A stretch of DNA of 43,416 nucleotides from a bacterium (GCA_947505805.1 CANNMA010000002.1:1-43416); one strand, 5' to 3'; positions 1,161 to 43,219 are shown, counted from the stretch's first letter. Translations and numbers: made by a program. The notes: generated by a model not told the origin, from the letters alone.

Positions 1161-3554
1161 GTGTTTACTGTTGATCTTTCTATTCCCCAACCACAAATCC
1201 AATTTACCCACTATCTTGAAACTCAACTTAATGCTGAACAAAAAGAAGCTGTTCTCCATAAAAATGGCTGCATTCTTGTTATAGCTGGAGCAGGATCTGG
1301 CAAAACACGCCTGATCACCTCACGAATTGCCTATCTTCTTATTGAAGGAAAAGTACAACCATCGCAAATAGTAGCACTTACTTTCACTAATAAAGCTGCT
1401 CAAGAAATGAAAGAACGAGTTCATTCATTCACCAATTCCAAAACACACAATCCTTTTATTGGCACTTTTCACTCATACTGTTTGTATCTACTGAGACTCC
1501 ATCAATCACTTTTACCCTTTGATACTTTTTCTATTATCGATGAAGATGATAAAAAAGCGTTGCTTACCAAAATTCTCAAAAAAAGCCCTCTTTACAAAAA
1601 ACTCACACCCCAAACACTTTCTCATCAAATATCTCGAGTAAAAAATCAACTTCCTGGTGATTCAATTATGCAAGATCTTTCATTTGAGAATCCTAATCTT
1701 GCTGAAATTTTGCATGAATATGAAAAAGAAAAAAATCTAAGTAAATGTTTTGATTTTGATGATTTGCTCCTCGAAGCTCTCAAACTTTTTAAAAATCACC
1801 CTCAAGTTAAACAACTTCATCAAGAACGAGTTCGTCATTTACTTGTTGATGAATACCAAGATACCAACACTATTCAACATGCACTTCTTTCTGAAATGGC
1901 TATTGATAGTAAAAAAGTGTTCTGTATCGATTCAATTTGTGTGGTAGGAGATGAAGATCAATCAATTTATTCTTGGCGTGGAGCAACAGTCGATAACATT
2001 ATCAACTTTAGATCTGACTTTAAAAACACCAAATTTGTAAAAATTGAACAAAATTACCGGTCAAAACAACCAATTCTTTCCGTTGCAAACAATCTCATCA
2101 AACACAACAGTAAACGAAATGAAAAAAAACTCTGGTCAGATAAAAAAGGGACTGATTGCGTACGAGCACTCCGCTGCCTATCAGGCTACCAAGAAGCTGA
2201 AATTATTGGACGTTTTTGCAAGCTACTGCATTCTCAAAAAAAATTAACATCTACCGCTGTTTTATATCGAACACATTATCAATCTCGAGTCATTGAAGAA
2301 GCACTTTTAAGGCACTCTATTCCTTATACAATCATTGGAGGAATCCGATTTTATGAACGAAAAGAGATTAAAGACATCATGGCTTATGTTCGTCTAATCA
2401 TAAATCCATTTGATAAGGTTGCCTTTGCTCGGGTCATAAACTGTCCGCTTCGTGGGCTTGGAGATAAATTTCAAGAAACGCTCCTTGATTTTTGGCATGC
2501 TGAACCACTTCTTGACCTTCATCATATGGCAAAAAAAGCTCATGATGTGAAATTATTTCCTACTACAAAACTCGAAGCTCTCAACAAATTTTGTGCACTT
2601 ATTAAAAAGCATAAATCTTACGATTCTGCTACTCAAGTAATTGCAGACATTGTCCTTGATACGGAATATATAGCCCATTTAAAAAAAGATTATGAACCTA
2701 ACGAAGCTGATGAGCGCCAACAAAACATTAAAGAACTGTTAAACGCGGCTCATTATTTTGGAAATCAAGGAAAATCAACCATTACATCATTCTTTGAAGA
2801 AGTTTCTTTACTCCAAGAACAGATTGATGCTCAAGCCGCTACAGAAAAAAATGTTGTTACTCTCATGACTCTTCACGCAGCTAAAGGCCTTGAATTTGAT
2901 AATGTAATCATTTCAGGAATGGAAGAAAATATTTTACCTTCTGGCAGATCGCTTGATAGTAAAGAGAACCTTGAAGAAGAACGTCGTTTACTATACGTCG
3001 GTATTACCCGTGCAAAAAATAGACTTTTATTTACTTTTGCTCGTTACCGACAATCATTTGGCCAAATGGAAGATCAAATTCCTTCACGATTTTTACAAGA
3101 ACTCCCTCATGAACATTGCAAATTTGAACAAGCTGATCGTTGGCAATATTATGAGCTAGACGCTTATCTTTCACAGTGGCTAGGGATAACCCAAGGAAAT
3201 CCAGAAGTTTTTGTCTTTTCAAAACCTTCTCAAACACCAACCCATTCTGAAGCTGTTATAAAAGTAAGTACTACTCCCAAAAAACTAGACCTTCTATCTC
3301 CGGTTAAATCAGCACTAAAGCCTCGCAAATCAGTTACTAATAAATCCGAAAAAGTTTCTAAACTACCAGCTTCACACCCTTCAACTGGAGTTTTAAGTTC
3401 AGGAAAGTTTAGAAAACATCAAAGCGTTAAGCATGAAACATTCGGACTTGGAGTCATTCAAGCTCTTGAAGAAAAGCGAGGAAAGACCATTGCACATGTG
3501 CATTTTAAAGATGGACTGAAAAAGATTGACGCTTCCTATCTAGATACAATTTGA
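1161..3554 (+). CDS. pcrA: ATP-dependent DNA helicase, UvrD/PcrA/Rep superfamily 1
   Basis: GTG start at 1161 with AAGGA 6 nt upstream. Walker A AGAGSGKT, LLVDEYQDTN (motif II), VGDEDQSIYSWRGA, EQNYRS, TLHAAKGLEFD and YVGITRAK motifs. S/T/K/P-rich linker plus a C-terminal small domain (HETFGLGVIQ). Confidence 0.93.
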   Translation: MFTVDLSIPQPQIQFTHYLETQLNAEQKEAVLHKNGCILVIAGAGSGKTRLITSRIAYLLIEGKVQPSQIVALTFTNKAAQEMKERVHSFTNSKTHNPFIGTFHSYCLYLLRLHQSLLPFDTFSIIDEDDKKALLTKILKKSPLYKKLTPQTLSHQISRVKNQLPGDSIMQDLSFENPNLAEILHEYEKEKNLSKCFDFDDLLLEALKLFKNHPQVKQLHQERVRHLLVDEYQDTNTIQHALLSEMAIDSKKVFCIDSICVVGDEDQSIYSWRGATVDNIINFRSDFKNTKFVKIEQNYRSKQPILSVANNLIKHNSKRNEKKLWSDKKGTDCVRALRCLSGYQEAEIIGRFCKLLHSQKKLTSTAVLYRTHYQSRVIEEALLRHSIPYTIIGGIRFYERKEIKDIMAYVRLIINPFDKVAFARVINCPLRGLGDKFQETLLDFWHAEPLLDLHHMAKKAHDVKLFPTTKLEALNKFCALIKKHKSYDSATQVIADIVLDTEYIAHLKKDYEPNEADERQQNIKELLNAAHYFGNQGKSTITSFFEEVSLLQEQIDAQAATEKNVVTLMTLHAAKGLEFDNVIISGMEENILPSGRSLDSKENLEEERRLLYVGITRAKNRLLFTFARYRQSFGQMEDQIPSRFLQELPHEHCKFEQADRWQYYELDAYLSQWLGITQGNPEVFVFSKPSQTPTHSEAVIKVSTTPKKLDLLSPVKSALKPRKSVTNKSEKVSKLPASHPSTGVLSSGKFRKHQSVKHETFGLGVIQALEEKRGKTIAHVHFKDGLKKIDASYLDTI

Positions 3555-6938: not shown

Positions 6939-9419
6939 TTATTGAGCTGCAGCCATTCGTTTTTGATAATGCTCTCTAACCCAAGCTATAACTTCTTTTC
7001 GTCGCTTTACATATTTCATATATTTTTCTGTTCGTTGATAAATGGTCGGATCAATACCTTTAATCTTAACACCAGCCTCTTGTGCAGCTTTTGGATCAAG
7101 AATTTTTTTAGAAAGAATAATGGCAAACTCATGGTAAAATGGTGCTTGATTATGATTATCAGCTATTTCAACAACATCAGTCGTTTCTTTGCCATTAATC
7201 ATAATTGGTTTAAGCGGCCCACCTGATGTTGTTGAGTACGCAAGTTCACGAGCAGTATCTCGAGACATAGAAATCATAAGCAGTCTTCCAAAATCCCCCT
7301 GATCTTTAATCGCGTCTTCATACAGATCGTACAATTCATCAAAAACTGTTTTATCTCCTGAACTCATTGTACTAAGTAACATTTGATATTCTTCAAAAAG
7401 ACCTAAATTTTTAAACATTTCTTGTAACGCATTCTTAAAATCATATCGTTTCTGACCAACAGTTTGATCTGAGTTGGTAGTAACATAGTGCCATGAATTT
7501 GATCCGGAACTATTTGCAAATAGATGCAAATTCGCAAACAATATTGAAAATCTATAGTATTCAAAAGTTTCTTTAGTAAGCCCATTTGTACAAAGCATAG
7601 ACACTTCTTCATCAGTTAAAAATGAGTCATTTGAAAATCGAAAAGGAACAAAATTATCTCCAAAAAGAGCTTCTCTTTCTTGAACACAGTGCGAAAGTTC
7701 AGTAAACCATTCTCCTAAAAATGCCCATTGTGAATGCTGCCCATGAAAAAAAACAATGCGATCATCTTTGTATTCCTGCTCAACATACTCTGTAATATCC
7801 CACAACAAAGCTTTTAGATTTTCACTTTCTTTTTCTTCTATAACGCACAGTATTTTAGAAAAATTTTTAATAAAAAAATCTGAAAATAAAGGACCTTTTA
7901 TTCCTGAAGACATTTTTTTAGATAATAACGGTACAAATTCTACATAAGTATCACTCAAAAATTGCAGCATCTCTTCTTGACTATAATAAAAATTCATCAG
8001 ATAGAATTTCTTTTGTACTGTAAGATTATTACCGCATATCTCAAATACAAGATGCGCATAGTACATAGCTTCTTCTTTTGAAAAATCTTTAAATATTTTT
8101 TCAAAATCTAATTGACTCAAGACGTTTGAATCTTTTACATCAACACAATCAGCTAAATAGTCTAAACGATCCTTATAAGATAAATTCTCTAAAATATTAT
8201 TTTCAAGCAATCTCCATGTTACCAATTTACTAGCCATACTCTCTTTTAAAGAATTTTCTTTCCAATGTTTCCATACACTTAGCAGCATCCTCTCAGATTC
8301 TTTTTTAGGTAGATAAAACCCTAAATACCTTACAATATCATCTGCCTGATCTAAATCTAAATCATCAATCAACATCACTGCTAACATTTTTTCAGTATAA
8401 TTTATTTGGTCATTTTCACATGAACAATAAAAAGACTTGCCTATCTTTAATTTTTCTTCAAAAGAAATTGTTTTTGATTGAACTAATAAATCAAATAGTA
8501 GCTCCACTAATTGATCTTTTATTTTGTTTTTATCTTCTATTAATGTTCTCCAATCGTGATTAATAGACATAAACAAAGACCATCGCATGTCTCTAAAAAA
8601 ATCACACATATTTGAAATAATACTCTCTATAGTTGAAACATCTTGAGGAAATTTAAAAAATTCTTTTAACAACTGACAAATACACAGTATCTTTTGATCT
8701 TCAGAATCAACCAAATCAAGAAATAAAGAGCATGATTCGACAGTAGAAACAAGCGGTCCATTAAAAACTTTTGAAAGAACTAATAATCGATCTTCCGGCA
8801 AAACCATATCCCATAATTTTTTTAAAATTTCTTTTGGATTTTTATCAGGAAAATATCGTGAATTTGCCTGACCTTTTTCCCATAACAATGCTATACCACC
8901 GTGCTCCAGTCCCTGATCAAAATATTTTTTAATCAAAGCATTATGTTCTTCTTTAGAATCAGAAGATCCTTGAATTTTTTCAATAATCCGTTCACCTTCA
9001 CTAATCCAATCAAAAACAGCATCACTTGGTTTATACAGCCAATAATCAAAGTCATCTAATGCCCCTAATGTTACAAAACCCAACAATGGAAAAAAGCCTA
9101 AAGAAAAATCTTGGTTTCCCTTAGCTTTAGACGACGCAGCAGTAACTACTGGTAACGCTGAATACTTTGTATTGATAAATGATTTTGGGGCAGCAGGAAC
9201 TCGTGATTTTATATCCGCATGAGCAGCAGATTGAGTGGAGCTGGTAGCTTGAGCTGATGATCCACCAAAACGAGACGAAACTTCTTTTGCAGCAACAACT
9301 GATCGTTTAAATGCATCACCAAAACATGAAGCCGCTTGTCTAAAATAGGCAGCTTGAACAGGTGCAAAAGCCCCTGCCATAAGCATAACCATGCTTATTA
9401 TGTATAACTTTTTATTCAT
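6939..9419 (-). CDS. large hypothetical exported protein (826 aa), no family recognised
   Basis: Long uninterrupted ORF. N-terminal signal-like MNKKLYIISMVMLMAGAFAPVQAA. Has its own terminator. The antisense ORFs in this span are short. Confidence 0.75.
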   Translation of the reverse strand: MNKKLYIISMVMLMAGAFAPVQAAYFRQAASCFGDAFKRSVVAAKEVSSRFGGSSAQATSSTQSAAHADIKSRVPAAPKSFINTKYSALPVVTAASSKAKGNQDFSLGFFPLLGFVTLGALDDFDYWLYKPSDAVFDWISEGERIIEKIQGSSDSKEEHNALIKKYFDQGLEHGGIALLWEKGQANSRYFPDKNPKEILKKLWDMVLPEDRLLVLSKVFNGPLVSTVESCSLFLDLVDSEDQKILCICQLLKEFFKFPQDVSTIESIISNMCDFFRDMRWSLFMSINHDWRTLIEDKNKIKDQLVELLFDLLVQSKTISFEEKLKIGKSFYCSCENDQINYTEKMLAVMLIDDLDLDQADDIVRYLGFYLPKKESERMLLSVWKHWKENSLKESMASKLVTWRLLENNILENLSYKDRLDYLADCVDVKDSNVLSQLDFEKIFKDFSKEEAMYYAHLVFEICGNNLTVQKKFYLMNFYYSQEEMLQFLSDTYVEFVPLLSKKMSSGIKGPLFSDFFIKNFSKILCVIEEKESENLKALLWDITEYVEQEYKDDRIVFFHGQHSQWAFLGEWFTELSHCVQEREALFGDNFVPFRFSNDSFLTDEEVSMLCTNGLTKETFEYYRFSILFANLHLFANSSGSNSWHYVTTNSDQTVGQKRYDFKNALQEMFKNLGLFEEYQMLLSTMSSGDKTVFDELYDLYEDAIKDQGDFGRLLMISMSRDTARELAYSTTSGGPLKPIMINGKETTDVVEIADNHNQAPFYHEFAIILSKKILDPKAAQEAGVKIKGIDPTIYQRTEKYMKYVKRRKEVIAWVREHYQKRMAAAQ

Positions 9420-10055: not shown

Positions 10056-10373
10056 CTATTCCATAGAAACTGTTTGCTCTTGAGATCCATCACTGAGTTG
10101 AGCGCTTGATGCTTCTTTAAGAGTCATTTTTGCTACTGCTATTTTTAACAATTCTTCATTAGATTGTTTCAAGCTCTTATGCACATATCCAGCACCAATA
10201 AGTGATTGTGATAGCTCAAAACACCCCACACGACATTGCGGAGACAGTGGTGCATCATATTCTTGCACATCAGTGAGCGGCTTACGTGGTGAATCTGGAC
10301 GATAAAAATCACCTGCCTGAACTAAAGAAAAATTAACTCCAAAAAAAACAATTAACGCAAGTTGTTGCTTCAT
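10056..10373 (-). CDS. small hypothetical exported protein
   Basis: The ORF track extends to 10430, but the internal ATG at 10373 gives a classical signal peptide MKQQLALIVFFGVNFSLVQAG. Terminator about 20 nt after the stop. Confidence 0.55.
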   Translation of the reverse strand: MKQQLALIVFFGVNFSLVQAGDFYRPDSPRKPLTDVQEYDAPLSPQCRVGCFELSQSLIGAGYVHKSLKQSNEELLKIAVAKMTLKEASSAQLSDGSQEQTVSME

Positions 10374-10540
10374 AAAAACCCCTACAGAAATATACATTGA
10401 TCCCAGAAGTGTACAGATTTTATAAAACAATACTACGTTATTTTTGATTTTTTATTACCGAGTCATTGCTGTTGAAAGAAAAAGCTATTTATACTCAGGA
10501 TCATCTAACCTGTGAAAAAATTATTACTCAAGGAGTCATT

Positions 10541-29496: not shown

Positions 29497-29572
29497 TGGC
29501 AGGCCAGGAGGGATTTGAACCCCCATCCATCAGATTTGGAGTCTGCCGCTCTACCGTTCGAGCTACTGGCCT
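29497..29572 (-). tRNA. tRNA-Trp (anticodon CCA), CCA encoded
   Basis: Hand fold: acceptor AGGCCAG/CTGGCCT, anticodon loop CTCCAAA, T loop TTCAAAT. Classical position next to rpmG/secE. Confidence 0.9.
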
Positions 29573-29581
29573 CTCACCAAT

Positions 29582-29740
29582 TTACTTTGTTTCTTTGTGT
29601 AGATTATGTTTGCGACACCATGCACAGTATTTTTTCAAACGAAGAGAACCAACGGTTCTTTTCTTTGAAACTAGTTGTGTATAATTACGATGTTTACAAT
29701 CTTCACACGATAAGCTCGTGATTACTTTATTTTTAGCCAT
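29582..29740 (-). CDS. rpmG: 50S ribosomal protein L33 (52 aa; below the ORF-track cutoff)
   Basis: My own translation: MAKNKVITSLSCEDCKHRNYTQLVSKKRTVGSLRLKKYCAWCRKHNLHKETK*. It has the CxxC..CxxC zinc-ribbon form of L33. Synteny with secE. Confidence 0.88.
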   Translation of the reverse strand: MAKNKVITSLSCEDCKHRNYTQLVSKKRTVGSLRLKKYCAWCRKHNLHKETK

Positions 29741-29773
29741 TTTTCCGTACCTTTTGCCCAATTTAAATTTTTC

Positions 29774-29849
29774 ATGGAGCCCGCGACCGGATTTGAACCG
29801 GTGACCTTTCCCTTACCATGGGAATGCTCTACCAACTGAGCTACGTGGG
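29774..29849 (-). tRNA. tRNA-Thr (anticodon GGU), CCA encoded
   Basis: Hand fold: anticodon arm TTCCC-ATGGTAA-GGGAA, T arm ACCGG-TTCAAAT-CCGGT. One A.C mismatch in the acceptor stem. Confidence 0.88.
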
Positions 29850-29944
29850 CATTCCTAACACTGATTCACAGGCATTCTTTAAAACTAAAGGAAAAAAACT
29901 AAAAAGACAAATCTTTTTAGCTATTCTGTCCACACTTTTAAGTA

Positions 29945-30020
29945 TGGAGCTGGCGACTAGATTTGAACTAGCGACCTACTGATTACAAATCAGTTGCTCT
30001 ACCAACTGAGCTACGCCAGC
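29945..30020 (-). tRNA. tRNA-Thr (anticodon UGU), CCA encoded
   Basis: Hand fold: acceptor GCTGGCG/CGCCAGC, anticodon arm ACTGA-TTTGTAA-TCAGT. Confidence 0.88.
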
Positions 30021-30038
30021 ATCCTTAAGCTTAAAATT

Positions 30039-30115
30039 TGGAGCGGGAAACGAGACTCGAACTCGCAACCTACAGCTTGGAAGGCTGTCGCTCTAACCAA
30101 TTGAGCTATTCCCGC
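30039..30115 (-). tRNA. tRNA-Gly (anticodon UCC), CCA encoded
   Basis: Hand fold: acceptor GCGGGAA/TTCCCGC, anticodon arm ACAGC-CTTCCAA-GCTGT, T arm GCGAG-TTCGAGT-CTCGT. Confidence 0.88.
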
Positions 30116-30126
30116 AAATTTTTTTT

Positions 30127-30211
<85 letters not shown>

Positions 30212-30592: not shown

Positions 30593-30620
30593 TTGACTTC
30601 AACTTTCTATAGCATACACT
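30593..30620 (+). promoter_or_regulatory. candidate sigma70-type promoter for the first MutS-like gene
   Basis: TTGACT (30593-30598), 16-nt spacer, TACACT (30615-30620), about 48 nt upstream of the ATG at 30668. Motif match only. Confidence 0.2.
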
Positions 30621-30667: not shown

Positions 30668-32623
30668 ATGAAAAAACTTTTAGTATTTTGCTTATTAACA
30701 TCACCACTTGCGTGTCTTACGGGAACACCTATTCCTGAACAACAAGTAACATCACAAAATCCTCTTTTTGAGATTACACAATTACATCTTTCAAGTCTTG
30801 CTATGCCTATTGTACAAGTAAAGAAAGAAAAAACAGAAGCTGAAAAAACATTTTTTGAAAAAATAACAAAACTAGAAGAACCTGAATTTATCATTCCAGA
30901 AAGTTCCAAATATGAGCAAATTTCACTTGCCTATACACTTCTTGCTCCCTACGTTGAATTGCCTGAAGAAAAAGTTGCAAATCAAAATGCGCTAAAAGAC
31001 CTTGAAGTTCTTGCTGGAAATCACACTAAAGCAAACAACCTTCTAAATATTTTTAATAGAACACATCTTCCAGAAGGTGAAGTCTATTTAGCAGAGCTCT
31101 TAACTCATCCAGTTACAGACATTCAAGAACTGCAAAAACGCCAAAATATCATTAAAGCTCTTGTTGAAAATCCTGCAATGGAAATTGCACTTGATGAAGC
31201 TCTAGCAGAATTTAAAAAACATCACACAACTTTCAATAGTCTTTGGACTGCTGAATCAAAAGCAAATAGCGTTTTTGTTGATGGACACTTTTGGCGTTGG
31301 AAGTTTTTGGAAGGTCTTAATACAAATTCTAAATATCAACATGCTGTGACCAGCTTTAATCTTTTTGTACAACCTGCAACCTCAATTTTACCAATGGCTC
31401 TAATGCAAGGTCTTATAACCTATCCAGTAATCACTACACCCGAATTAAGATCAAACCCTGTGGAAGTAGGATCAGCAGTATTTGCAAATGCTTATGTTGG
31501 ATTCATTACCTACATTTTAGCCCAATCAGTCAAAAAGAATTTCGATGCTCTCAACTATCTTCAAGGAAAAGCTATTTCTGTTGCTAGTCTTGTAAGAACA
31601 ATTGATGCTGCCCAAAAAGCAATTGAACTACACCCAGAATTACAGGAATTAGATTATGCTGATGTACTAGCAGCGTTTTCTAAAGGGACCGCATCTGTCT
31701 CATCCAAAATGAGAAGACTTGTTACCCTTTTAAGAACAAACACTTTCAAAAATGAGCCCTCTGTATTCTCTCTCCAAGGTCGCGTTAAAGTTGCCTATGC
31801 GCTTATTGAACAGATCAAAGATGAATTAGCTCCTGCACTCGTTGCACTTGGTGAACTTGATGCGTATCTTTCATGTGCAAAGCTTTATAAAGAATTTGAA
31901 AACAAAGATAACAAATTCGTTTTTGCACAGTACATCACATCAAACAGTCCCTCTATTACTATGGATGCTATGTGGAATCCATTTGTTGGTTCAGAAAAAT
32001 CGGTCGTTAACTCTATTGAATTTGGTAAAAGCAATCCTCGTAACATGATTTTGACTGGCCCAAATGCTGGTGGTAAATCAACATTTGCAAAAGGCCTAAC
32101 CTTAAATGTTTTTCTTGCTCAAACGATCGGCATGGTCCCTGCAAAGTCATTTGCACTAACACCATTTGCAAAGATCAATACCTACATGAACATTAGTGAT
32201 GATACAGCTGGTGGAAATTCACTCTTTAAATCTGAAGTTATGCGAGCACAAGAACTTATCGACACTATCAAAAGTCTTCCAAGTAAAAAGTTTTCATTCT
32301 CAGTTATGGATGAAATGTTCAGCGGAACCTCTCCAAAAGAAGGTGAAGCTGCTACCTATGCAGTTGCTGATGATCTTATGAAACAATCAAACTCTATCTT
32401 AATCTTGGCAACACACTTTCAAAAACTGAAAGAACTTGAATCAACCACAACACTTGTAAAAAACTATCAAGTACGAGTTGTCCGCTATGAAGATGGCTCA
32501 TTCAGCTATCCATTCAAATTAGAAGAAGGAGCTGCAGATCAAAATGTTGCTATCGATATTCTAAAACAAGAAGGCTTTAGTAGCTCTATTCTTGATAAGG
32601 CATATCAGATTTTACAGAACTAA
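30668..32623 (+). CDS. MutS-family protein, paralog A (core domain III-like plus domain V ATPase; N-terminal hydrophobic leader; no mismatch-binding domain)
   Basis: Leader MKKLLVFCLLTSPLACL. MutS core motif NRTHLPEGEVYLAELLTHP..RQNII. Two central hydrophobic segments. Walker A LTGPNAGGKSTF, signature GNSLFKSEV, Walker B FSVMDEMFSGTSPKEG, and ATHF. Confidence 0.85.
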   Translation: MKKLLVFCLLTSPLACLTGTPIPEQQVTSQNPLFEITQLHLSSLAMPIVQVKKEKTEAEKTFFEKITKLEEPEFIIPESSKYEQISLAYTLLAPYVELPEEKVANQNALKDLEVLAGNHTKANNLLNIFNRTHLPEGEVYLAELLTHPVTDIQELQKRQNIIKALVENPAMEIALDEALAEFKKHHTTFNSLWTAESKANSVFVDGHFWRWKFLEGLNTNSKYQHAVTSFNLFVQPATSILPMALMQGLITYPVITTPELRSNPVEVGSAVFANAYVGFITYILAQSVKKNFDALNYLQGKAISVASLVRTIDAAQKAIELHPELQELDYADVLAAFSKGTASVSSKMRRLVTLLRTNTFKNEPSVFSLQGRVKVAYALIEQIKDELAPALVALGELDAYLSCAKLYKEFENKDNKFVFAQYITSNSPSITMDAMWNPFVGSEKSVVNSIEFGKSNPRNMILTGPNAGGKSTFAKGLTLNVFLAQTIGMVPAKSFALTPFAKINTYMNISDDTAGGNSLFKSEVMRAQELIDTIKSLPSKKFSFSVMDEMFSGTSPKEGEAATYAVADDLMKQSNSILILATHFQKLKELESTTTLVKNYQVRVVRYEDGSFSYPFKLEEGAADQNVAIDILKQEGFSSSILDKAYQILQN

Positions 32624-32799
32624 AGAAAACCAAAAGGGACTAGCCGTATTCTAATTGAGTATTCACTATCATCAAAACTTCCTACTACGCTCTAAAAGCC
32701 GCATAGAAAAAGATAGAATGATTTTAAATATAGAGAGAAATAGGTTGGTCCCTTTTTTAAAAAAATCATTTCACAATTTTAAATTTGAAAAGGTTCACC

Positions 32800-35478
32800 A
32801 TGATATATTCATCAAAAAAAACACCTCTCCTTTTATTCGTACTTTTAGGATCAACACCTGTTGTTCTAAAAGGAGTACATAAAAACAATAACCACTCTAC
32901 TCTTTCTCATTATAACCCCAATGAACAATCTCCTTTTGGTGACATTGCACGCGAATATATGAAAAACCAAAAAGTTCAGAAGCCGTCTCTCTTAACAACT
33001 GAAGAACAAGAACAGCTAAAAACAGATATTTCAGAAATCCCCTTTTCTACAAAATGTCGGCATCTCTATGGTATCTGGCAACAACCTGCTCTTTTTTGTA
33101 CACACAATTCAATTTTAGATAAAAATGGATGGCAAAATCTTGAACTCCTTTCTGGAAGCCATGATGGAGCACCTGATGTTGCACACTTATTAGATCAAAC
33201 AGAAACTATTTTTGGTAAACTTTTTAGCACCTATTTACTCACATCTCCAACTAGCGACACAACAGTTCTGCAGAATCGACAAGCGGTCATTAAAGAGTTT
33301 TTAAATAACAAAGAACTTTCTGCCAAAATCACCGAATCACTTAAAAAGACTGCTGCTGCTCAAAACACTTTCTTCTTTTTATATGAAGACGAATCTGATT
33401 TTAATTTTGAAGAAATTAGTAAGTACTTTTTTACCACTCAATCTCCGGTCTTTAAATATCTTAAGTATGCAAATACCAGTTCTGTTGCAATGGAACTTTT
33501 ATGCCTAAAAGGTCGTATGTTTTCATATGCCCTACCAGCTGCACTGCCGTATCTTTTTTTCTGGACTACTCAAAAAATTCATGAAAACTTAGACTTTCAA
33601 AAAACTAAAACCGCATTTAGTGAATCTGAAGATTTTACTAAAATGAGTGCCAACATTGCTGAAGAATTCAGAAAAAACAAAGTTAGCAAAGATCGATTTA
33701 TTGAAATTTTGAATAAATTTTATACAAGTATAGAAGATAATCCTATAGCAGCTCAAATGGTTCCAAATATTCGTACTATTGCACGTGATAACGGAGCAGC
33801 ACAAAGATTATTTTGGGCAAATCCTAATGCTATCGCACAGGCATGCACTGAAGGATTAATTAATCCTGTAGAACAAAACATTATTACTGATGCTCTTAAA
33901 AAATCATTTGGTAACCTTCCACAAGGATGTGAAGCTGGCCTTAAATCTTGGAATGTTGCACTTGCTCAATTAACAAATGAATGCCGTAAAAAAGCAGCGT
34001 GGAGCATGGTTGACGGGTTAACGCCATGGCAACGAGAACTCAAAAATACCTCTGATGTTGAACAAATAGAAATAACTAGACTAAATCCTGAACTAACTGC
34101 AGAAAATCCAGAAATTTGGATAAAAAAACTATTTAAAATGCAAAACGATGACCTAAAATGGCTCTTGTTCCAAAAAGACGTTTTTACCAAATATACAGCT
34201 GGTGACAGAATAAAATTACTGCAATTAGCTCGTAAAAAATGTGCTGAACAAAGCCTTGTTGATCAATCAAACATGAGCCCTGCAACTATGAGCGGTATTA
34301 TTAAAGCGCTTACTATTTTTACCGGTACCGTTGGCGCTGTTGAAGGTCTTGCTGCTTATTGCTGCTATTCACGAGAAAACAGTTACAACACTCTGACCAA
34401 CTACCTTCAAATGCAAATGATTGCTGTAGGAACTGTTGTTCGAACCATGAAACTAGTAAATGAAGAAATCAAAAATAATCCTGTACTGACTGCTGGCCTT
34501 AATCATTCACAGCACTTGACCGATCTTTTTGATACACAATCAAAAACTGTTTCTAGTAAATTGCATCAACTTGTGAATCTTCTTTTGACCAATACATTCA
34601 GCGGTGAGCCATCATATTTTAGCTTTAAAGGTCGCGTTCTTGCTGCCTATGCTCTTATGAAAGAAATCAGACAAGAACTTGCTCCAGCACTCTTTGCTCT
34701 TGGTGAAGTTGATGCATACCTTTCATGCGCAAAACTTATGGAAAAGCATGAAAATAAAGAAAATAGATTTACCTTTGCAACATACGTTGACCAAGATGCT
34801 CCCTACATTAATTTACAAAACATGTGGCATCCATTTGTATCATCTGAAAAAGCTATTGCAAATTCTATTGAATTAGGTGGTCAATACACTAAAAACATTA
34901 TTTTAACTGGCCCTAATGCTGGTGGTAAATCAACTTTTTCTAAAGGTCTAGCAACAAGTCTTTTACTTGCTCAAACAATTGGAATTGTTCCAGCACAATC
35001 ACTTGTGTTTACTCCTTTTGCAAAAATAAACACATATATGAACATTACTGATGATACTGCTGCAGGCAATTCACTCTTTAAATCAGAAGTCCTAAGAGCA
35101 CAACAGCTTTTAGAAACCATTAACACGCTTGATAAAAACAAGTTTTCATTCTCAGTCATCGATGAAATGTTTAGTGGAACTTCTCCAAAAGAAGGTGAAG
35201 CGGCAAGTTATGCTGTTGCAAAAAACCTTGCTACTAATAGTAACTCTATAGCAGTTATTGCAACACATTTTCCAAAACTAAAAGAGCTAGAAACAACGCT
35301 TGGAACCTTTAAAAACTATCAGGTACGAGTGATTCGTTACGATGATGGTTCATTCAGCTATCCATTCAAACTGGAAGAAGGGGCTGCAGATCAAAACGTT
35401 GCTCTTGATATTTTACAACAACAAGGATTTGATAGCAGTATTTTAGACGATGCACAAGCAATTTTAAGAAACAATTAA
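32800..35478 (+). CDS. MutS-family protein, paralog B (as A, with a roughly 235-aa insertion between the hydrophobic segments)
   Basis: ATG at 32800 (the track starts at TTG 32785). Leader KKTPLLLFVLLGSTPVVL. C-terminal half is highly similar to paralog A: LTGPNAGGKSTFSKGL, TPFAKINTYMNITDDTAAGNSLFKSEV, FSVIDEMFSGTSPKEGEA, YQVRVIRYDDGSFSYPFKLEEGAADQNVA. Confidence 0.85.
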   Translation: MIYSSKKTPLLLFVLLGSTPVVLKGVHKNNNHSTLSHYNPNEQSPFGDIAREYMKNQKVQKPSLLTTEEQEQLKTDISEIPFSTKCRHLYGIWQQPALFCTHNSILDKNGWQNLELLSGSHDGAPDVAHLLDQTETIFGKLFSTYLLTSPTSDTTVLQNRQAVIKEFLNNKELSAKITESLKKTAAAQNTFFFLYEDESDFNFEEISKYFFTTQSPVFKYLKYANTSSVAMELLCLKGRMFSYALPAALPYLFFWTTQKIHENLDFQKTKTAFSESEDFTKMSANIAEEFRKNKVSKDRFIEILNKFYTSIEDNPIAAQMVPNIRTIARDNGAAQRLFWANPNAIAQACTEGLINPVEQNIITDALKKSFGNLPQGCEAGLKSWNVALAQLTNECRKKAAWSMVDGLTPWQRELKNTSDVEQIEITRLNPELTAENPEIWIKKLFKMQNDDLKWLLFQKDVFTKYTAGDRIKLLQLARKKCAEQSLVDQSNMSPATMSGIIKALTIFTGTVGAVEGLAAYCCYSRENSYNTLTNYLQMQMIAVGTVVRTMKLVNEEIKNNPVLTAGLNHSQHLTDLFDTQSKTVSSKLHQLVNLLLTNTFSGEPSYFSFKGRVLAAYALMKEIRQELAPALFALGEVDAYLSCAKLMEKHENKENRFTFATYVDQDAPYINLQNMWHPFVSSEKAIANSIELGGQYTKNIILTGPNAGGKSTFSKGLATSLLLAQTIGIVPAQSLVFTPFAKINTYMNITDDTAAGNSLFKSEVLRAQQLLETINTLDKNKFSFSVIDEMFSGTSPKEGEAASYAVAKNLATNSNSIAVIATHFPKLKELETTLGTFKNYQVRVIRYDDGSFSYPFKLEEGAADQNVALDILQQQGFDSSILDDAQAILRNN

Positions 35479-35482
35479 TAAC

Positions 35483-35510
35483 AAAAGGGAGTGCAACCAG
35501 ACTCCCTTTT
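35483..35510 (+). terminator. intrinsic terminator after MutS-like paralog B
   Basis: Stem AAAAGGGAGT/ACTCCCTTTT (core GGGAGT/ACTCCC) with 8-nt loop GCAACCAG, followed by a T-run. Confidence 0.65.
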
Positions 35511-35537
35511 TAATCTTTAAAAAAAGAGGCTTTCATT

Positions 35538-36842
35538 ATGATGACTTATACTCAAAAAACAGTAACATTGTTTATCTCTAGTTTATTAACGTTTTCATTG
35601 ATTCACTCAAGCGAAAACAACGCACATAACAAATCTAAGCATCCCTTTTTTGATATCGCTCAACTTCACCTTGCTAGTCTTCCGTTTCCTGCAACTCGCG
35701 CAAACGAAAAAGTTGACACTGAAGAAAGTGTAATTTTCAAACGATTACAAGCTTTAGAAAATCCAAACTATACGATTCCTTCATTTTCAAAGTATGATCA
35801 AATAGCCCTTGCTTATACGCTTCTTGCCCCTCATGTTCCATGCACACAAGAAGATTGTTCTGAGGCTTTAGATCTTTCATTATTTCAATCAACGAGTGAC
35901 TACAAAAATACCCCCTTCCCCATTTTCAACAGAACATATCTTCCAGAAGGCGAAGTGTATTTAGCACATATTTTGACTCATCCAGCAAAAAATCAACAAG
36001 AATGGATGAATCGTCAAAATATTTTGAATGCGCTTACTGCAAATCAAGATTTTTGTAATGCTTTAACTGATATTTTCCGTAATTTACAACTTCATCATGA
36101 AGCACTTTATAGTCTATGGGCGCTTGACCAAGAAATGCATCGCTCACTCATGGCAACACAATATTTTCAAGCATTTGGATGGAGATGGCTCAATACCAGC
36201 AAAACCTTCCAGTACAGTGCAAATTTTGTAAAAATCTTTGGTAAATCTACAGGTGTTGCATCAGCATTAGTCACAACAGCAGGAGCAACCGTAGGCTTTC
36301 TTGCAAGGCCAGGAATTTTTTCATTAGCAGGAGCTTCTATTGTTAGTGGCACGAATTTATTAATGGCTTCCTACGGGGCAGATTTTATTAAAGCTGATCT
36401 TGAAGTTCTCTCTCATCTTCATACAAAAGTACACGCTGTAAGAGAACTCATTCTTGCAGTTGAACTTATAGAAAGAAAGATTAATGAAAATCCAGCTCTC
36501 TATGAATTAAACCATGCAACTACATTTACAACGTTTGCAAGACATAAAGAATCTCTGTCTTTAAAAATGCAAAAACTTATTTCATTAGCTAAAACAAGAA
36601 CATTCACCGAAAAGAATACATTCTTTACCTTACATGGACGTATTAAAGTTGCTTATGCACTCCTTGAAGAAGTCAAGGAAGAATTGACTCCTCTTTTTGC
36701 GGCATTAGGGGAACTTGATGCGTATCTTTCATACGCGAAAGTGTATAAAGAACTTGGTGAGTTTGATATACTTAATGAAGGATTTTCTGGAATTACGGAA
36801 TATTTAAAAGGGGAAATCTTACGTGTAGCGTGCGACTTTTAA
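35538..36842 (+). CDS. MutS-family paralog C, truncated (N-terminal and core region only; ATPase domain absent); possible gene remnant
   Basis: N-terminus is collinear with paralog A (PFFDIAQLHLASL, SKYDQIALAYTLLAP, IFNRTYLPEGEVYLAHILTHP, LGELDAYLSYAKVYKE). It ends 28 aa after the point where A and B continue into the Walker A region. Confidence 0.7.
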   Translation: MMTYTQKTVTLFISSLLTFSLIHSSENNAHNKSKHPFFDIAQLHLASLPFPATRANEKVDTEESVIFKRLQALENPNYTIPSFSKYDQIALAYTLLAPHVPCTQEDCSEALDLSLFQSTSDYKNTPFPIFNRTYLPEGEVYLAHILTHPAKNQQEWMNRQNILNALTANQDFCNALTDIFRNLQLHHEALYSLWALDQEMHRSLMATQYFQAFGWRWLNTSKTFQYSANFVKIFGKSTGVASALVTTAGATVGFLARPGIFSLAGASIVSGTNLLMASYGADFIKADLEVLSHLHTKVHAVRELILAVELIERKINENPALYELNHATTFTTFARHKESLSLKMQKLISLAKTRTFTEKNTFFTLHGRIKVAYALLEEVKEELTPLFAALGELDAYLSYAKVYKELGEFDILNEGFSGITEYLKGEILRVACDF

Positions 36843-38136: not shown

Positions 38137-38165
38137 TTGAAAAGTAGAGCAAGACCAAGTATTCT
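38137..38165 (+). promoter_or_regulatory. candidate sigma70-type promoter for atpG
   Basis: TTGAAA (38137-38142), 17-nt spacer, TATTCT (38160-38165), 38 nt upstream of the ATG at 38204. Motif match only. Confidence 0.25.
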
Positions 38166-38203
38166 TGAACCTAATATGTTTTATAGCAGTAAGAGGAAAA
38201 ACT

Positions 38204-39049
38204 ATGTCGCAGCTCATTCATCTTGCCCAACGAATAAAAGCGGTTACAACCATTAAAAAAATTACAAGCGCTATGCGACTTATCTCTCGTTCATTTCATA
38301 CCCGTATGCATAAAGAAGCAAAATTTGTAAATGATTATACCCATGCACTTCATAAAACAGTTGATGAGCTGTATGCACATCTTCCAGAAAAAAGCGCCCT
38401 ACAAACCCCTGTAAGCATACATGGCAAAAAATTAATCATACTTATAGGATCACAAAAAGGGCTCTGTGGAAGTTACAATACAACCATAATTCATTGGATA
38501 CATACACATTTACGAAAATTACAATCAGAAGATATGCATCTAATTGTACTTGGAAAAAAAATTGATGATTATCTTAAAAACCTCCATATACATCATCAAC
38601 GGTTACTTCCTGAACTCAAATTATCAAATATTAGTTCTGTCACTCAAAAACTTCTTGATGAAATTAATGGCTACACAGATGTAAAAGCAGTTAGTAACTG
38701 GCCAAAAACATTCTTATCCCATGAATATAGAGAGACCCAATTAATTCCGTTTAACTATACCCATAAAAAATCATCCTCCGAATGTGGCGATTATGCATGG
38801 TCTCATAGTCCTGAAATAATTTTAGAAACAATTATGAAAACTGAATTACACGTTAACCTGTATTCTTTATTGTTTTTTTCATTATCAGGAGAACAATCAG
38901 CTCGATTTATTGCAATGGATAATGCAACCAGAAATGCAAACAAATTTCTTGATAGTATGAAGTTACAATTTAATAAAATGCGACAAGCAAAAATCACTAA
39001 AGAACTTTCGGAGCTTGCTGGAGCATTTGAAACGCAATCATCTATTTAA
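38204..39049 (+). CDS. atpG: F-type ATP synthase gamma subunit homolog (stand-alone)
   Basis: ATG at 38204 with AAGAGGA RBS. N-terminal helix RIKAVTTIKKITSAMRLIS, GLCGSYN loop, C-terminal helix GEQSARFIAMDNATRNA..FNKMRQAKITKELSEL. Confidence 0.85.
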   Translation: MSQLIHLAQRIKAVTTIKKITSAMRLISRSFHTRMHKEAKFVNDYTHALHKTVDELYAHLPEKSALQTPVSIHGKKLIILIGSQKGLCGSYNTTIIHWIHTHLRKLQSEDMHLIVLGKKIDDYLKNLHIHHQRLLPELKLSNISSVTQKLLDEINGYTDVKAVSNWPKTFLSHEYRETQLIPFNYTHKKSSSECGDYAWSHSPEIILETIMKTELHVNLYSLLFFSLSGEQSARFIAMDNATRNANKFLDSMKLQFNKMRQAKITKELSELAGAFETQSSI

Positions 39050-42607: not shown

Positions 42608-43219
42608 ATGAAATACTTATTAAGCATGTTTATACTTTCTAGTGCTCTTTTTGCAGCCGAATCACCAATAACTCCATCATCTATGTCACCAGCAAAACAG
42701 AGCGAGCCTTCGCCATTTGCAGAAATAGAAAAAATGACACTACGAGAATTAGAATGCTATGAAAAACATTTTAAAAAAGCTGCAGAAACAATCACAACTG
42801 ATTGGACAAATGCAAAAAAAGATGGTCGTATAACTCCAAAAGGCCTTGAACGTATTCGCGAAAAACTACATCCTAAACAAATAGCTCTTGAAATCCTCAA
42901 CTTTGAACAAAAAAAACGCCGCGAAGGTGGAGCTCTTAGGGATGCAGAAGAAGCTGATCGATACACAAAACTATTAGAACTATTTAATGAAAAGTGGAAA
43001 AACCAACCAGCTGCAAAACCAAGAAGTAGATCTGCATCAGCAACTTCTATGGATGCGCAATCTAATAGCAGATCTGCATCATGCCCAGTTGCCTTAATGC
43101 CAATCCTTAAAACTCGTTCTTTAGCTGTCGTAGCATCACCTCTTACAACTACATCAAGCCCGCTACGTTCTTCTTCTGCAACAGTTCATTTTTCATTCGA
43201 TACTATTGATAAGAGCTAA
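42608..43219 (+). CDS. hypothetical exported protein; charged helical middle and S/T/R-rich tail
   Basis: Signal-like MKYLLSMFILSSALFAAES. ATG at 42608 preceded by AAAGGA. No family recognised. Confidence 0.6.
   Translation: MKYLLSMFILSSALFAAESPITPSSMSPAKQSEPSPFAEIEKMTLRELECYEKHFKKAAETITTDWTNAKKDGRITPKGLERIREKLHPKQIALEILNFEQKKRREGGALRDAEEADRYTKLLELFNEKWKNQPAAKPRSRSASATSMDAQSNSRSASCPVALMPILKTRSLAVVASPLTTTSSPLRSSSATVHFSFDTIDKS

Follow-up and report, generated by a model that had tools for sequence, protein, structure and literature searches.

Tandem MutS8-affiliated paralogues with signal-peptide-like leaders and a predicted hydrophobic hairpin in an intracellular Dependentiae parasite

Results

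Organisation of the array

The window analysed here is a 43,416-nucleotide stretch (GCA_947505805.1 CANNMA010000002.1:1-43416) from an intracellular parasite of the Dependentiae (TM6/Babeliales). It contains three consecutive, mutually paralogous open reading frames on the plus strand, designated A, B and C (Table 1), with the sizes given in an earlier note made from the sequence alone (651, about 892 and 434 aa). Gene B can be read from a TTG or from an ATG at 32800; the latter is the start in a near-identical database protein (P0035) and is probably the true one. As the earlier note had remarked, no mutL is found close to the array, and a search for a conserved partner gene of the array found none. 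The same note took the neighbouring tRNA cluster as a hint to function. This did not hold, as the array lies between conserved housekeeping blocks and the syntenic site carries 1 to 3 or more copies in related genomes. The array region contains a weak candidate promoter and a terminator-like hairpin; promoter-like sites in this region are not more frequent than in shuffled sequences and the total of terminator-like sites does not exceed the shuffled expectation.

Table 1 Features of the array. Positions are counted from the first nucleotide of the window.
Feature	Position	Strand	Description
Candidate promoter 5' of A	30593..30620	+	Sigma-70-like; TTGACT, 16 nt, TACACT; weak
Gene A	30668..32623	+	ORF, 651 aa; leader, core N part, hydrophobic hairpin, core C part (lever), ATPase; full-length MutS8-type
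A leader, residues 1-27	30668..30748	+	Sec signal-peptide-like; MKK, then hydrophobic core
A helical hairpin, residues 226-294	31343..31549	+	Hydrophobic segments 232-255 and 267-288; site of the MutS clamp (domain IV)
A ATPase domain, residues 441-651	31988..32620	+	MutS domain V (Pfam MutS_V 1e-32); Walker A, Walker B and H-loop intact; C-terminal helix pair
Gene B	32785..35478	+	ORF, Pfam; B-type paralogue; 897 aa (TTG start) or 892 aa (ATG start)
B-specific insert, residues 280-498	33622..34278	+	All-helical (AF2); at the hairpin tip, separating the two hydrophobic segments
B ATPase domain, residues 686-897	34840..35475	+	Pfam MutS_V 1.7e-30
Terminator-like hairpin	35483..35510	+	Directly past the B stop codon; 10-bp stem, then T-run; consensus scan only
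Gene C	35538..36842	+	ORF, 434 aa; leader, core N part, hydrophobic hairpin, lever; ATPase-less paralogue
C hydrophobic hairpin, residues 238-277	36249..36368	+	KD 1.26-1.43; rich in Gly, Ala, Ser and Thr

Domain content

Pfam searches matched MutS_III in A, B and C and MutS_V in A and B. No Pfam match to MutS_I, MutS_II, MutS_IV, Smr or HNH was found in the three proteins (for MutS_I and MutS_II, none at E ≤ 1), and the absence of a mismatch-binding domain and of Smr, which had been claimed from inspection, is therefore borne out by the profiles. The ATPase motifs listed previously (GPNAGGKST, GNSLFKSEV, DEMFSGTSPKEG and ATHF) are found in both A and B, and the block LGE(L/V)DAYLS(C/Y)AK in all three proteins. 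The core motif IFNRT(H/Y)LPEGEVYLA..LTHP..RQNI, by contrast, is not in every copy as had been stated but in A and C only, as B carries the diverged form LLDQTETIFGKLFSTYLLTSP..NRQAVI. Residues G464, N466, G469, K470, S518, D548 and T554 of the A ATPase are invariant over 82 sequences; this family-wide conservation of the catalytic motifs suggests that the full-length members would be active ATPases.

The array proteins could not be identified with MutS1, MutS2 or MutS7. Domain V is present in A and B but domains I, II and IV of the mismatch-repair protein MutS1 are absent, and the NCBIfam MutS equivalog scored 141-146 bits against a cut-off of 480. The MutS2 model TIGR01069 (93-103 bits) was also under its cut-off (400); there is no Smr and the chains end at the domain V helix pair. 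Neither domain I nor HNH, as in MutS7, is present, and the viral MutS7 structural match is weaker than that to MutS8. Scores for the KamC-type reactivase ATPase (NCBIfam NF052383; 82-86 bits) were below the cut-off of 300, and the PADLOC anti-phage defence models gave only marginal P-loop matches, to mad8 (E 0.0015-0.035).

Leaders

Leaders were called by a hydropathy and charge heuristic (basic n-region, h-region of 10-15 residues and small residues at the cleavage site). The hydrophobic N-terminus that the earlier note ascribed to each copy was recovered as a putative Sec-type leader in A, B and C, whereas none of ~19 cytoplasmic housekeeping proteins in the window was flagged. Leaders were also called in 72-79 of 93 Dependentiae homologues and in 10/10 members of a second leader-bearing group (group X, ~570 aa); with the same heuristic the count for viral homologues was 0/120. 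The A leader has an 11-residue h-region (KD 2.31) with K/R but no D/E ahead of it and, in the AF2 model, is disordered (pLDDT <50 for residues 11-27) and not packed on the hairpin. The h-regions of the leaders are short (~11-15 residues), with K/R ahead of them and small residues behind, which fits a cleaved signal peptide and not a 20-residue anchor.

Predicted structure, hairpin and B insert

The AF2 models of A (pLDDT 93.4, pTM 0.90) and B (pLDDT 86, pTM 0.76) are all helical over residues 1-420 and 1-660, respectively, with zero beta strands ahead of the ATPase domain. In A this excludes a cryptic domain I or connector, either of which, according to the earlier note, would make these proteins ordinary MutS homologues. 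Foldseek aligned the A model with MutS/MSH structures over 587-645 columns (E about 1e-19).

Membrane segments were called by hydropathy heuristics. Two internal hydrophobic segments had been reported for each copy and both are present in all three, but in B they are not adjacent, as an insert of ~240 aa separates them. The A segments (KD peaks 1.39 and 1.57) are modelled as helices H221-256 and H264-321. Their lengths, and the geometry of the hairpin in the AF2 model, are compatible with a pair of hydrophobic helices, each at least 19 residues long, with a short connecting loop. In the models, the two long lever helices end in this hydrophobic hairpin, which appears to replace the MutS clamp and is predicted to be long enough to span a bilayer. 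In 81 of the 91 ORFs of the family, the N and M domains are separated by hydrophobic segments, and those of the viral homologues align to the position of the A hairpin.

In A, B and C the hairpins have only moderate hydrophobicity (KD 1.3-1.6) and could alternatively form a protein-protein interface, for example a four-helix bundle closing a ring. In many relatives, and in all 120 viral homologues, the segments reach KD 2.0-2.5 over 19 residues. The median peak KD is 2.09 in the viral and 1.58 in the bacterial proteins, as would be expected if the latter had to pass through export without becoming trapped. In A, the second hydrophobic segment is followed by KK; the family-wide charge statistics at the hairpin flanks (a positive-inside analysis, uninformative overall) do not favour cytoplasmic flanks.

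The B insert is homologous among the B-type proteins yet fast-evolving (25-58% identity) and is the site of 19 of the 37 between-strain differences. It is absent from the B orthologue P0032/L006.

Phylogeny

A neighbour-joining tree, in which MutS1 was the only named subfamily, placed the Dependentiae proteins, group X and a viral group (group Y) in one clade in 98/100 bootstraps, on a long branch from MutS1. The viral clade is nested within the Dependentiae diversity and group Y is located on giant-virus contigs. The best viral structural match (BFVD) was to a Yasminevirus protein (E 2.4e-28, TMt 0.74), while the values were E 6.7e-22 and TMt 0.66 for the Tetraselmis virus 1 'MutS subfamily 8' protein and E 1.7e-18 and TMt 0.35 for viral MutS7. 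By genomic context and structure matches group Y is probably MutS8, and the array proteins would thus fall within or beside this subfamily, known from giant viruses and Amoebophilaceae symbionts. The earlier note had pointed to an uncharacterised family of membrane-associated MutS-related proteins; the array does belong to such a branch, but the family is not nameless, as clade and structure matches affiliate it with MutS8.

As cited in two articles (PMC3749498, PMC5698495), Ogata et al. 2011 (ISME J 5:1143) established the MutS8 subfamily from the giant viruses PoV and PpV, with homologues in 'Candidatus Amoebophilus asiaticus'. The annotation is also present in Tetraselmis virus 1 and CpV-BQ2. 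The distribution of the family is restricted to giant viruses and intracellular bacteria, and in the Dependentiae it has expanded to 797 clusters (E ≤ 1e-10) that share the architecture described here. The MutS8 type and the signal peptides on Cardinium MutS8 proteins were already known (2017, PMC5698495). What is new is the expansion in arrays in the Dependentiae, the hairpin at the clamp site, the leaders that are bacterial and not viral, the B insert and the recurrent ATPase-less paralogues.

Evolution of the array

A and B share 63% identity in their C-terminal halves and 26% in their N-terminal halves, in keeping with the disparity noted before. The recent duplication or gene conversion offered to explain it is contradicted by the tree, where A-type and B-type proteins of different genomes form separate clades that are kept across genomes, and by the DNA of the conserved half, which is 68% identical overall but 52% at third positions, with a longest identical run of 21 nt. 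The similarity is attributed to constraint after an old duplication. Between strains there are zero non-synonymous changes in A and in the B ATPase domain, and the omega of B is 0.21 (versus strain L088).

C matches only MutS_III in Pfam, is 36% identical to A over 391 aa and ends ~30 residues past LGELDAYLSYAK, at the domain III/V boundary. The next gene follows after just 140 nt, so no ATPase remnant is hidden downstream. The frames of C and its orthologue P0052, which retains a degenerate Walker A stub, are both open (54-56% identity) and an omega of about 0.3 indicates purifying selection on C. The omega values (B, 0.21; C, about 0.32) indicate that the genes are not pseudogenes. ATPase-less paralogues recur in the family, and split genes occur in L032 and L035.

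There are several loci per genome, with arrays of varying composition, and the family evolves through gene birth and death in these arrays. The pattern is effector-like, with variable copies, recurrent ATPase-less forms and no conserved partner gene.

Discussion

The mismatch-binding domain, the connector and the clamp are all absent from the array proteins, which makes a role in mismatch repair very unlikely and sustains the earlier proposal of a function unrelated to it. In C. destructans, canonical mutS and mutL are encoded separately and signal peptides are found on 44% of the CDS (PMC6561590). The Dependentiae import host ATP and possess Sec and type II secretion (PMC4776705).

The reading we favour, to which we would give an even chance, is that A, B and C work as dimeric, ATP-driven switches that are exported and anchored in a membrane at the host-parasite interface; we infer the export, the membrane insertion, the topology, the dimerisation, the source of ATP and the cellular target. 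The proteins would leave the bacterial cytoplasm via the Sec-type signal peptide and the hairpin would anchor them in a membrane, either on the periplasmic side of the inner membrane or, once they are released, in a membrane derived from the host. The ATPase heads may dimerise (A-A, B-B or A-B), and binding and hydrolysis of host-derived ATP would open and close the levers, as in the MutS switch. This motion would pass to the membrane-embedded tips of the hairpin and, in B, might also reach the extra helical domain across the membrane. C and similar ATPase-less paralogues would be retained non-catalytic versions, probably acting as modulators or competitors of the full-length proteins. A cleaved signal peptide together with a two-helix hairpin would put the ATPase outside the cytoplasmic membrane, where it needs extracytoplasmic ATP. 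Such an ATPase is unusual, yet plausible for an energy parasite. A difficulty for the host-membrane site is that a Sec substrate with a hydrophobic hairpin must cross the outer membrane.

The leaders and the MutS core and ATPase fold, kept over nearly full length, would also suit soluble effectors that leave the bacterium and bind or clamp DNA of the host, of mitochondria or of another foreign source, with the moderately hydrophobic hairpins of A, B and C closing a dimer ring and not entering a membrane. This possibility was raised for the Cardinium MutS8-type proteins (PMC5698495), and the giant-virus literature treats MutS8 as a DNA-repair gene (PMC3749498). We consider it unlikely, as both DNA-contacting MutS domains (I and IV) are missing, there is neither a nuclease domain nor a nuclear-targeting feature, and the more hydrophobic segments of many members and of the 120 viral homologues have the hydrophobicity typical of a membrane helix, unlike helices of soluble bundles. 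The mature proteins are also acidic (pI 5.7-6.2) with a net negative N domain, which is weak evidence in the same direction. It is likewise improbable that the proteins are inner-membrane proteins facing the cytoplasm, tethered by the hairpin for DNA or nucleoid housekeeping, with a leader that is an uncleaved anchor or non-functional for export. ATPases are normally cytoplasmic, the soluble domains of the leaderless viral homologues must face the cytosol and the KK of A is expected of a cytoplasmic flank. The short h-regions, however, speak for a cleaved signal peptide, the AF2 leader is not packed on the hairpin, even an N-in anchor would put the N domain outside the cytoplasm, the family-wide flank statistics give no support, and multi-copy, fast-changing arrays are unlike housekeeping genes.

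Decay of mismatch-repair genes in a reduced genome, with C as the most advanced remnant, would account for the lost ATPase domain of C, the Walker A stub of P0052, the split genes and the differing copy number among related genomes. It is nevertheless highly improbable, and largely refuted for A and B, given their intact, invariant catalytic motifs and the selection on their sequences; the open frames and omega of C and P0052, the A-type and B-type clades conserved across genomes and an architecture common to about 800 clusters also argue against it.

Beyond the reading of the array as exported, membrane-anchored switches, a wider proposal can be made, although we regard it as rather doubtful. 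MutS8-type proteins may be a tool common to giant viruses and protist-dwelling intracellular bacteria, spread by horizontal transfer. The MutS switch ATPase would have been turned into a machine that is anchored in a membrane and operates inside the host cytoplasm or on a surface exposed to it. The bacterial version would be exported, to be driven by host ATP beyond the bacterial cytoplasm. Its task might be the remodelling or tethering of membranes of the host or the vacuole; alternatively, it might act as a sensor of host ATP that signals across the parasite inner membrane through the hairpin (and the trans-side domain of B). If such a membrane machine exists, 'MutS8' would not be a DNA-repair gene at all, and giant-virus genomics would have to revise its use as a repair marker.

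Comparison with known systems

With MutS1/MSH proteins (E. coli MutS, human MSH2/3/6) the array proteins share the domain III levers and a domain V with Walker A, Walker B, a signature-like S-x-F, the H-loop and C-terminal dimerisation helices; they lack domain I, the MutL-docking connector (II) and the clamp (IV), and possess a leader and a hydrophobic hairpin. MutS2 is a Smr endonuclease and a ribosome-collision and recombination factor, cytoplasmic and soluble. It too is without domains I and II and keeps the core and ATPase, a precedent for reuse of the MutS chassis in tasks beyond mismatch repair, but the array proteins have no Smr or KOW domain. In the Type VII ABC mechanotransducers (MacB, FtsEX and LolCDE) the nucleotide cycle of an ABC-type ATPase dimer is relayed by long helices to membrane segments, and a further domain, inserted between two membrane helices, lies on the opposite side. 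The likeness may be one of functional analogy only, in which the B insert would hold the place of the far-side domain; the membrane part is non-homologous, the array chains have two hydrophobic helices each and the predicted orientation would be inverted, with the ATPase outside the bacterial cytoplasm.

MutS3 and MutS4 are uncharacterised bacterial branches from free-living Firmicutes, Myxococcus, Gloeobacter, Thermoplasma and others (Lin, Nei and Ma 2007, PMC2190696). Compared by their description there, they resemble the array in having a C-terminal ATPase, sometimes the core, and often A/B paralogue pairs (MutS4A/B are adjacent), whereas leaders and membrane segments are not reported for them.

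The Cardinium hertigii proteins CAHE_0017 and CAHE_0267 are MutS8-affiliated, 40% identical paralogues, two per genome, both with predicted signal peptides and with Amoebophilus homologues, and were proposed as secreted host-interaction candidates or effectors (Mann et al. 2017, PMC5698495). Like the array, they are diverged MutS8-affiliated paralogues with predicted signal peptides, and they come from an obligate intracellular symbiont; Cardinium belongs to the Bacteroidota, and tandem arrays, a membrane hairpin, an insert and ATPase-less copies are not described there (PMC5698495). MutS8 itself consists of only the core (III) and ATPase (V), without I, II, IV or a nuclease, has its hydrophobic hairpin in the same position and is confined to entities that replicate inside eukaryotic cells. 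The Dependentiae members differ from it in having predicted Sec-type leaders and less hydrophobic hairpins, in forming multi-copy arrays with separate lineages of A-type and B-type proteins, and in the 240-aa insert of B and the paralogues without an ATPase.

Results

Pfam profiles matched MutS_III, the core domain, in A, B and C and MutS_V, the ATPase domain, in A (1e-32) and B (1.7e-30), and none of MutS_I, II, IV and Smr was matched in the three proteins, even at E ≤ 1. Scores of the array proteins against the NCBIfam models MutS, MutS2 and KamC were far under the cut-offs. A and B are 63% identical across the last 358 residues and 26% in the N-terminal part, A and C are 36% identical over 391 residues, and C terminates about 30 residues past LGELDAYLSYAK, that is, at the core/ATPase boundary. 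The motif IFNRT(H/Y)LPEGEVYLA, which the earlier note had placed in every copy, is found in A and C only, B carrying a diverged equivalent. The ATG start of B is the one used in P0035, its near-identical database counterpart, and agrees with the length of about 892 residues originally given. The catalytic motifs are invariant throughout the family, and the proteins keep a functional-looking ATPase switch.

Features of the window (positions in nt)
Feature	Position	Strand	Description
Gene A	30668-32623	+	ORF, 651 aa
Gene B	32785-35478	+	ORF, 897 aa from TTG; 892 aa from ATG at 32800
Gene C	35538-36842	+	ORF, 434 aa
tRNA cluster	29497-30211	-	Tyr-Gly-Thr(tgt)-Thr(ggt)-Trp
Terminator-like hairpin	35483-35510		10-bp stem and T-run
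Lone atpG	38165-39049	+	ATP synthase gamma subunit
ORF without Pfam match	6939-9419	-	826 aa
ORF without Pfam match	42608-43219	+	203 aa
ORF without Pfam match	10056-10430	-	124 aa
ORF without Pfam match	45-1007	+	320 aa

The array is surrounded by ordinary housekeeping genes, with rpoB/C, the ribosomal protein genes rplKAJL, nusG and the tRNA cluster upstream and tsaE, yacP, atpG, murA, tdk and radA downstream. In the closest genomes (L001-L007) it occupies the same site, with nusG and tRNAs on one side and tsaE-yacP-atpG on the other, and the site holds from one to three or more copies in differing combinations. Homologues of A are almost all metagenome proteins, the named ones belonging to Candidatus Dependentiae, Babeliales or TM6. 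An exhaustive search with the non-ATPase part of A (residues 28-440) gave 797 clusters at E ≤ 1e-10, and a scan covering GTDB at one genome for each species gave 192 relatives, from which 79 loci were retained, nearly all in Dependentiae MAGs and frequently several per MAG. The number of clusters, together with the dominance of Dependentiae among the loci, indicates a large, lineage-centred family. It is a multi-copy, birth-and-death family with no constant operon partner across the 79 loci, and PADLOC was negative for membership of a defence system.

The lone atpG is flanked by yacP and murA in a window that holds no other atp genes, and its placement is kept in L001-L007. The tRNA cluster lies upstream of nusG and lacks tuf, which in many bacteria sits between such tRNAs and secE-nusG. 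MAGs bearing the family are often labelled 'uncultured Pseudomonadota', 'Alteromonas naphthalenivorans', 'Cytophagales' or 'Oligoflexales' (L001, L002, L003, L007, L076, L077 and others). As rpoB, the ribosomal proteins and nusG of L001-L007 are 70-85% identical to those of the window, and their gene content is also Dependentiae-like, the non-Dependentiae labels among L001-L007 are probably wrong.

The AF2 model of A, built from an 82-sequence alignment, has a pLDDT of 93.4 and a pTM of 0.90, and the leader is its sole disordered part. Residues 28-420 are wholly helical and, since domain I, the connector and the clamp all contain beta sheets, none of the three is hidden there. A cryptic domain I or connector is ruled out by the empty Pfam searches and by the lack of pre-ATPase beta structure in the models, in agreement with the earlier note, which had found neither a mismatch-binding domain nor Smr. 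Neither mismatch recognition nor MutL docking in the known way is possible for A, B and C. In Foldseek searches, A aligns with MutS/MSH structures over about 600 columns (E ~1e-19), and its ATPase domain closes with the usual helix pair. At the position of the DNA clamp the model has a hairpin of two long helices (221-256 and 264-321), the tip of which holds hydrophobic segments (232-255 and 267-288) of predicted membrane-spanning length.

The model of B (pLDDT 86) follows the same plan, and the 220 or so additional residues form an all-helical domain past the hydrophobic stretches of its hairpin. Were the hairpin to cross a membrane, the N-terminal and ATPase domains would be on one side and the extra domain on the other. 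The insert is 97% identical in P0035 and 58% identical in P0027; a word-index homologue search with the insert alone gave a false negative, both proteins being present in the database. A B-clade orthologue of 684 aa in MAG CANNBR (L006 2-1969, the same protein as P0032) does without the insert (about 240 aa), its sequence aligning directly with B residues 47-266 and 510-897; gain or loss of the insert therefore took place inside the B lineage.

Leaders were scored by a heuristic requiring an 11-residue window with a hydropathy (KD) of at least 2.0 near the N-terminus, with K/R ahead and no acidic residue. A, B and C were positive, as were 72 of 93 family ORFs from the loci, and none of about 19 identifiable cytoplasmic proteins of the window was flagged. 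The leaders resemble cleaved Sec signals, with predicted sites (slash) such as SFSAFA/EQ and TSVFA/NA. Hydrophobic 19-mers lie between the N-terminal domain and the lever part of the core in 81/91 ORFs. Export-type leaders are predicted alongside the hairpin, and the central idea of the earlier note, membrane-leader MutS paralogs with a role other than mismatch repair, is sound and the observation real.

The four window ORFs without a Pfam match all have a hydrophobic N-terminal stretch, and those of 826, 203 and 124 aa pass the same heuristic; the N-terminus of the first reads MNKKLYIISMVMLMAGAFAPVQA/AYF. All four may be further secreted parasite proteins.

Gene C has an orthologue, P0052, in the syntenic position of another genome (56% identity over 376 aa), which keeps an ATPase stub, LSGQNNTIPTT, at the position of LTGPNAGGKST in A. 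Copies without an ATPase adjoin full-length ones in L001, L052 and L065, the third copy of L001 (381 aa) terminating at the same boundary as C, and in L025 an ORF with only the N-terminal domain (531 aa) lies beside a full-length copy. Further ATPase-less representatives in the library are P0294, P0283, P0318, P0350 and P0363. The omega of C against P0052 is ~0.32, an approximate value because dS is close to saturation, compared with 0.13-0.14 for the flanking tsaE and yacP. Only 140 nt separate C from the next gene, and tblastn found no ATPase remnant there. That C is a pseudogene hiding such a remnant is ruled out by the short gap, the negative tblastn and the omega value; C is a non-catalytic paralog that has been retained, with constraint that is relaxed yet real, and not a fresh pseudogene.

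Between B and C, five bases after the B stop and 27 before the C start, there is a candidate terminator-like hairpin, a hint at possible transcription of C apart from A and B; neither promoter-like nor terminator-like sites were enriched above shuffles. In L080 an extra gene of 378 aa with a leader (2267-3403) lies between P0052 and tsaE; it has no Pfam match and no MutS-family similarity, and the window has no counterpart at that site. Split family genes occur in L032 (7653-9761, N-terminal domain and lever, then ATPase) and L035 (2294-4298, N-terminal domain, then lever and ATPase). Frameshifted pseudogenes and sequencing errors are both possible explanations, and the split genes fit ongoing gene death in the MutS8-type family.

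Trees were built separately for the N-terminal domain and for lever plus ATPase; in them the B-type proteins (857-928 aa) of different genomes form one clade and the A-types fall in others. In their conserved halves, the genes for A and B share 68% DNA identity overall and 52% at third positions, with a longest identical run of 21 nt, and a repeat search found only tracts of 75-78% identity. The recent duplication or gene conversion put forward in the earlier note is ruled out by the trees, the repeat search and the codon-level comparison; the low identities and short identical runs show that the duplication is old. The higher C-terminal similarity instead reflects stronger constraint on the ATPase.

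Against L088, an ENA contig (ERZ27280198) from a near-identical strain, divergence across 31334-35475 is mosaic. The last 429 codons of A have one difference (dS 0.003), B has 37 differing sites, 19 of them within the 234-codon insert (insert dS 0.089, omega 0.14), and the intergenic regions on either side show 99-100% identity. Either recombination has brought in a B allele from a more distant source, as the pattern suggests, or the assembly carries an artefact of mixed strains.

A, B and C are MutS8-type proteins. The best match of A in the viral structure library is a Yasminevirus MutS-family protein (E 2.4e-28, TMt 0.74), followed by a 562-aa protein and the Tetraselmis virus 1 'DNA mismatch repair ATPase MutS subfamily 8', with viral MutS7 scoring behind these three. 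A leaderless set of distant homologues of about 600-660 aa (group Y), with more than 450 relatives, is encoded on contigs with giant-virus content, where genes for a fused eukaryotic-type topoisomerase II, SWIB, a TBP-like protein, DNMK and SAP also occur; the same proteins are found on two IMG/VR viral contigs (72 and 170 kb). With canonical MutS as the root, a neighbour-joining tree unites the Dependentiae proteins, leader-bearing distant homologues of about 570 aa (group X) and the viral group in a single clade (98/100). Within it the viral proteins are monophyletic (95/100) and branch from among Dependentiae sequences, a nesting that is weakly resolved. An N-terminal leader is found in 0/120 viral proteins compared with 79/93 from Dependentiae, and the homologous hairpin segment is more hydrophobic in the viral proteins (median peak KD 2.09 versus 1.58).

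The giant-virus contigs L082 (10001-11995) and L086/L087 (IMG/VR UViGs) encode the leaderless P0105 (664 aa), annotated in one source as 'EcfA2 transporter ATPase'. Its proline-punctuated, strongly hydrophobic segment, LYRIIGSPIIGIVSPIMYFVVPYLVL, makes the viral MutS8-like proteins look membrane-bound too, a character of which no mention was found in the literature examined.

Discussion

The 2011 abstract by Ogata et al. reportedly places the MutS8 of PoV and PpV closest to homologues from Candidatus Amoebophilus asiaticus. MutS8 was defined in that work (Ogata et al. 2011, as cited in PMC3749498 and PMC5698495), and MutS7 and MutS8 are regarded as repair hallmarks of the Megaviridae (PMC3749498). 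Cardinium hertigii has two MutS8-affiliated proteins, 40% identical and both, 'somewhat surprisingly', with signal peptides, which were listed as candidate secreted host-interaction proteins (Mann et al. 2017, PMC5698495); Amoebophilus has two homologues as well (PMC5698495). The earlier note had called the family uncharacterised, which holds for its function, although the name and a published remark on signal peptides exist; MutS3 and MutS4 have been described as uncharacterised (Lin et al. 2007, PMC2190696). Members of the Dependentiae live as obligate intracellular energy parasites and possess ATP/ADP translocases, the Sec pathway and type II secretion (PMC4776705), and C. destructans has signal peptides on 44% of CDS and encodes canonical mutS/mutL separately (PMC6561590). 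Our literature search found no publication tying the Dependentiae to the MutS8-type family.

We propose that the proteins would be exported and membrane-anchored, would dimerise through domain V and would apply the ATP-driven movement of the MutS lever to a host-interface membrane and not to DNA. Extracytoplasmic ATP would be plausible given an organism that imports host ATP. One main rival is a secreted DNA-binding effector, which would also account for the leaders. Another, a cytoplasm-facing inner-membrane protein, would share the membrane segments, and the flank charges of these gave no clear orientation in a positive-inside analysis. Action beyond the bacterial cytoplasm is supported by the restriction of the family to giant viruses and intracellular bacteria, by the presence of leaders in the bacterial members only and by the lower hydrophobicity of the bacterial hairpins. 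Effectors with membrane segments show the same trend, avoiding capture in the bacterial inner membrane. The last main rival, gene decay, would suit the split genes and is largely excluded for A and B.

If the proposed action at a host membrane is right, the family would be a rare P-loop ATPase predicted to work outside the bacterial cytoplasm. The candidate effector repertoire of the Dependentiae gains about 3-5 genes per 1-1.5 Mb genome. The family is also a concrete link of gene exchange between Dependentiae and giant viruses of the same protist hosts. Since 2011, lists of giant-virus hallmarks have carried MutS8 under 'DNA mismatch repair', and it has served as a phylogenetic marker. The replacement of the clamp by a hydrophobic hairpin in high-confidence models, the export leaders in bacterial and not viral members and the expansion in a phylum of obligate energy parasites argue that this annotation is misleading, and suggest a MutS chassis converted to a membrane-associated ATPase at the host interface. 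The name MutS8 and the note on signal peptides were already known; the new elements are the expansion in Dependentiae, the hairpin as read from the structure models, the insert of B, the repeated occurrence of paralogs without an ATPase and the contrast between viral and bacterial members.
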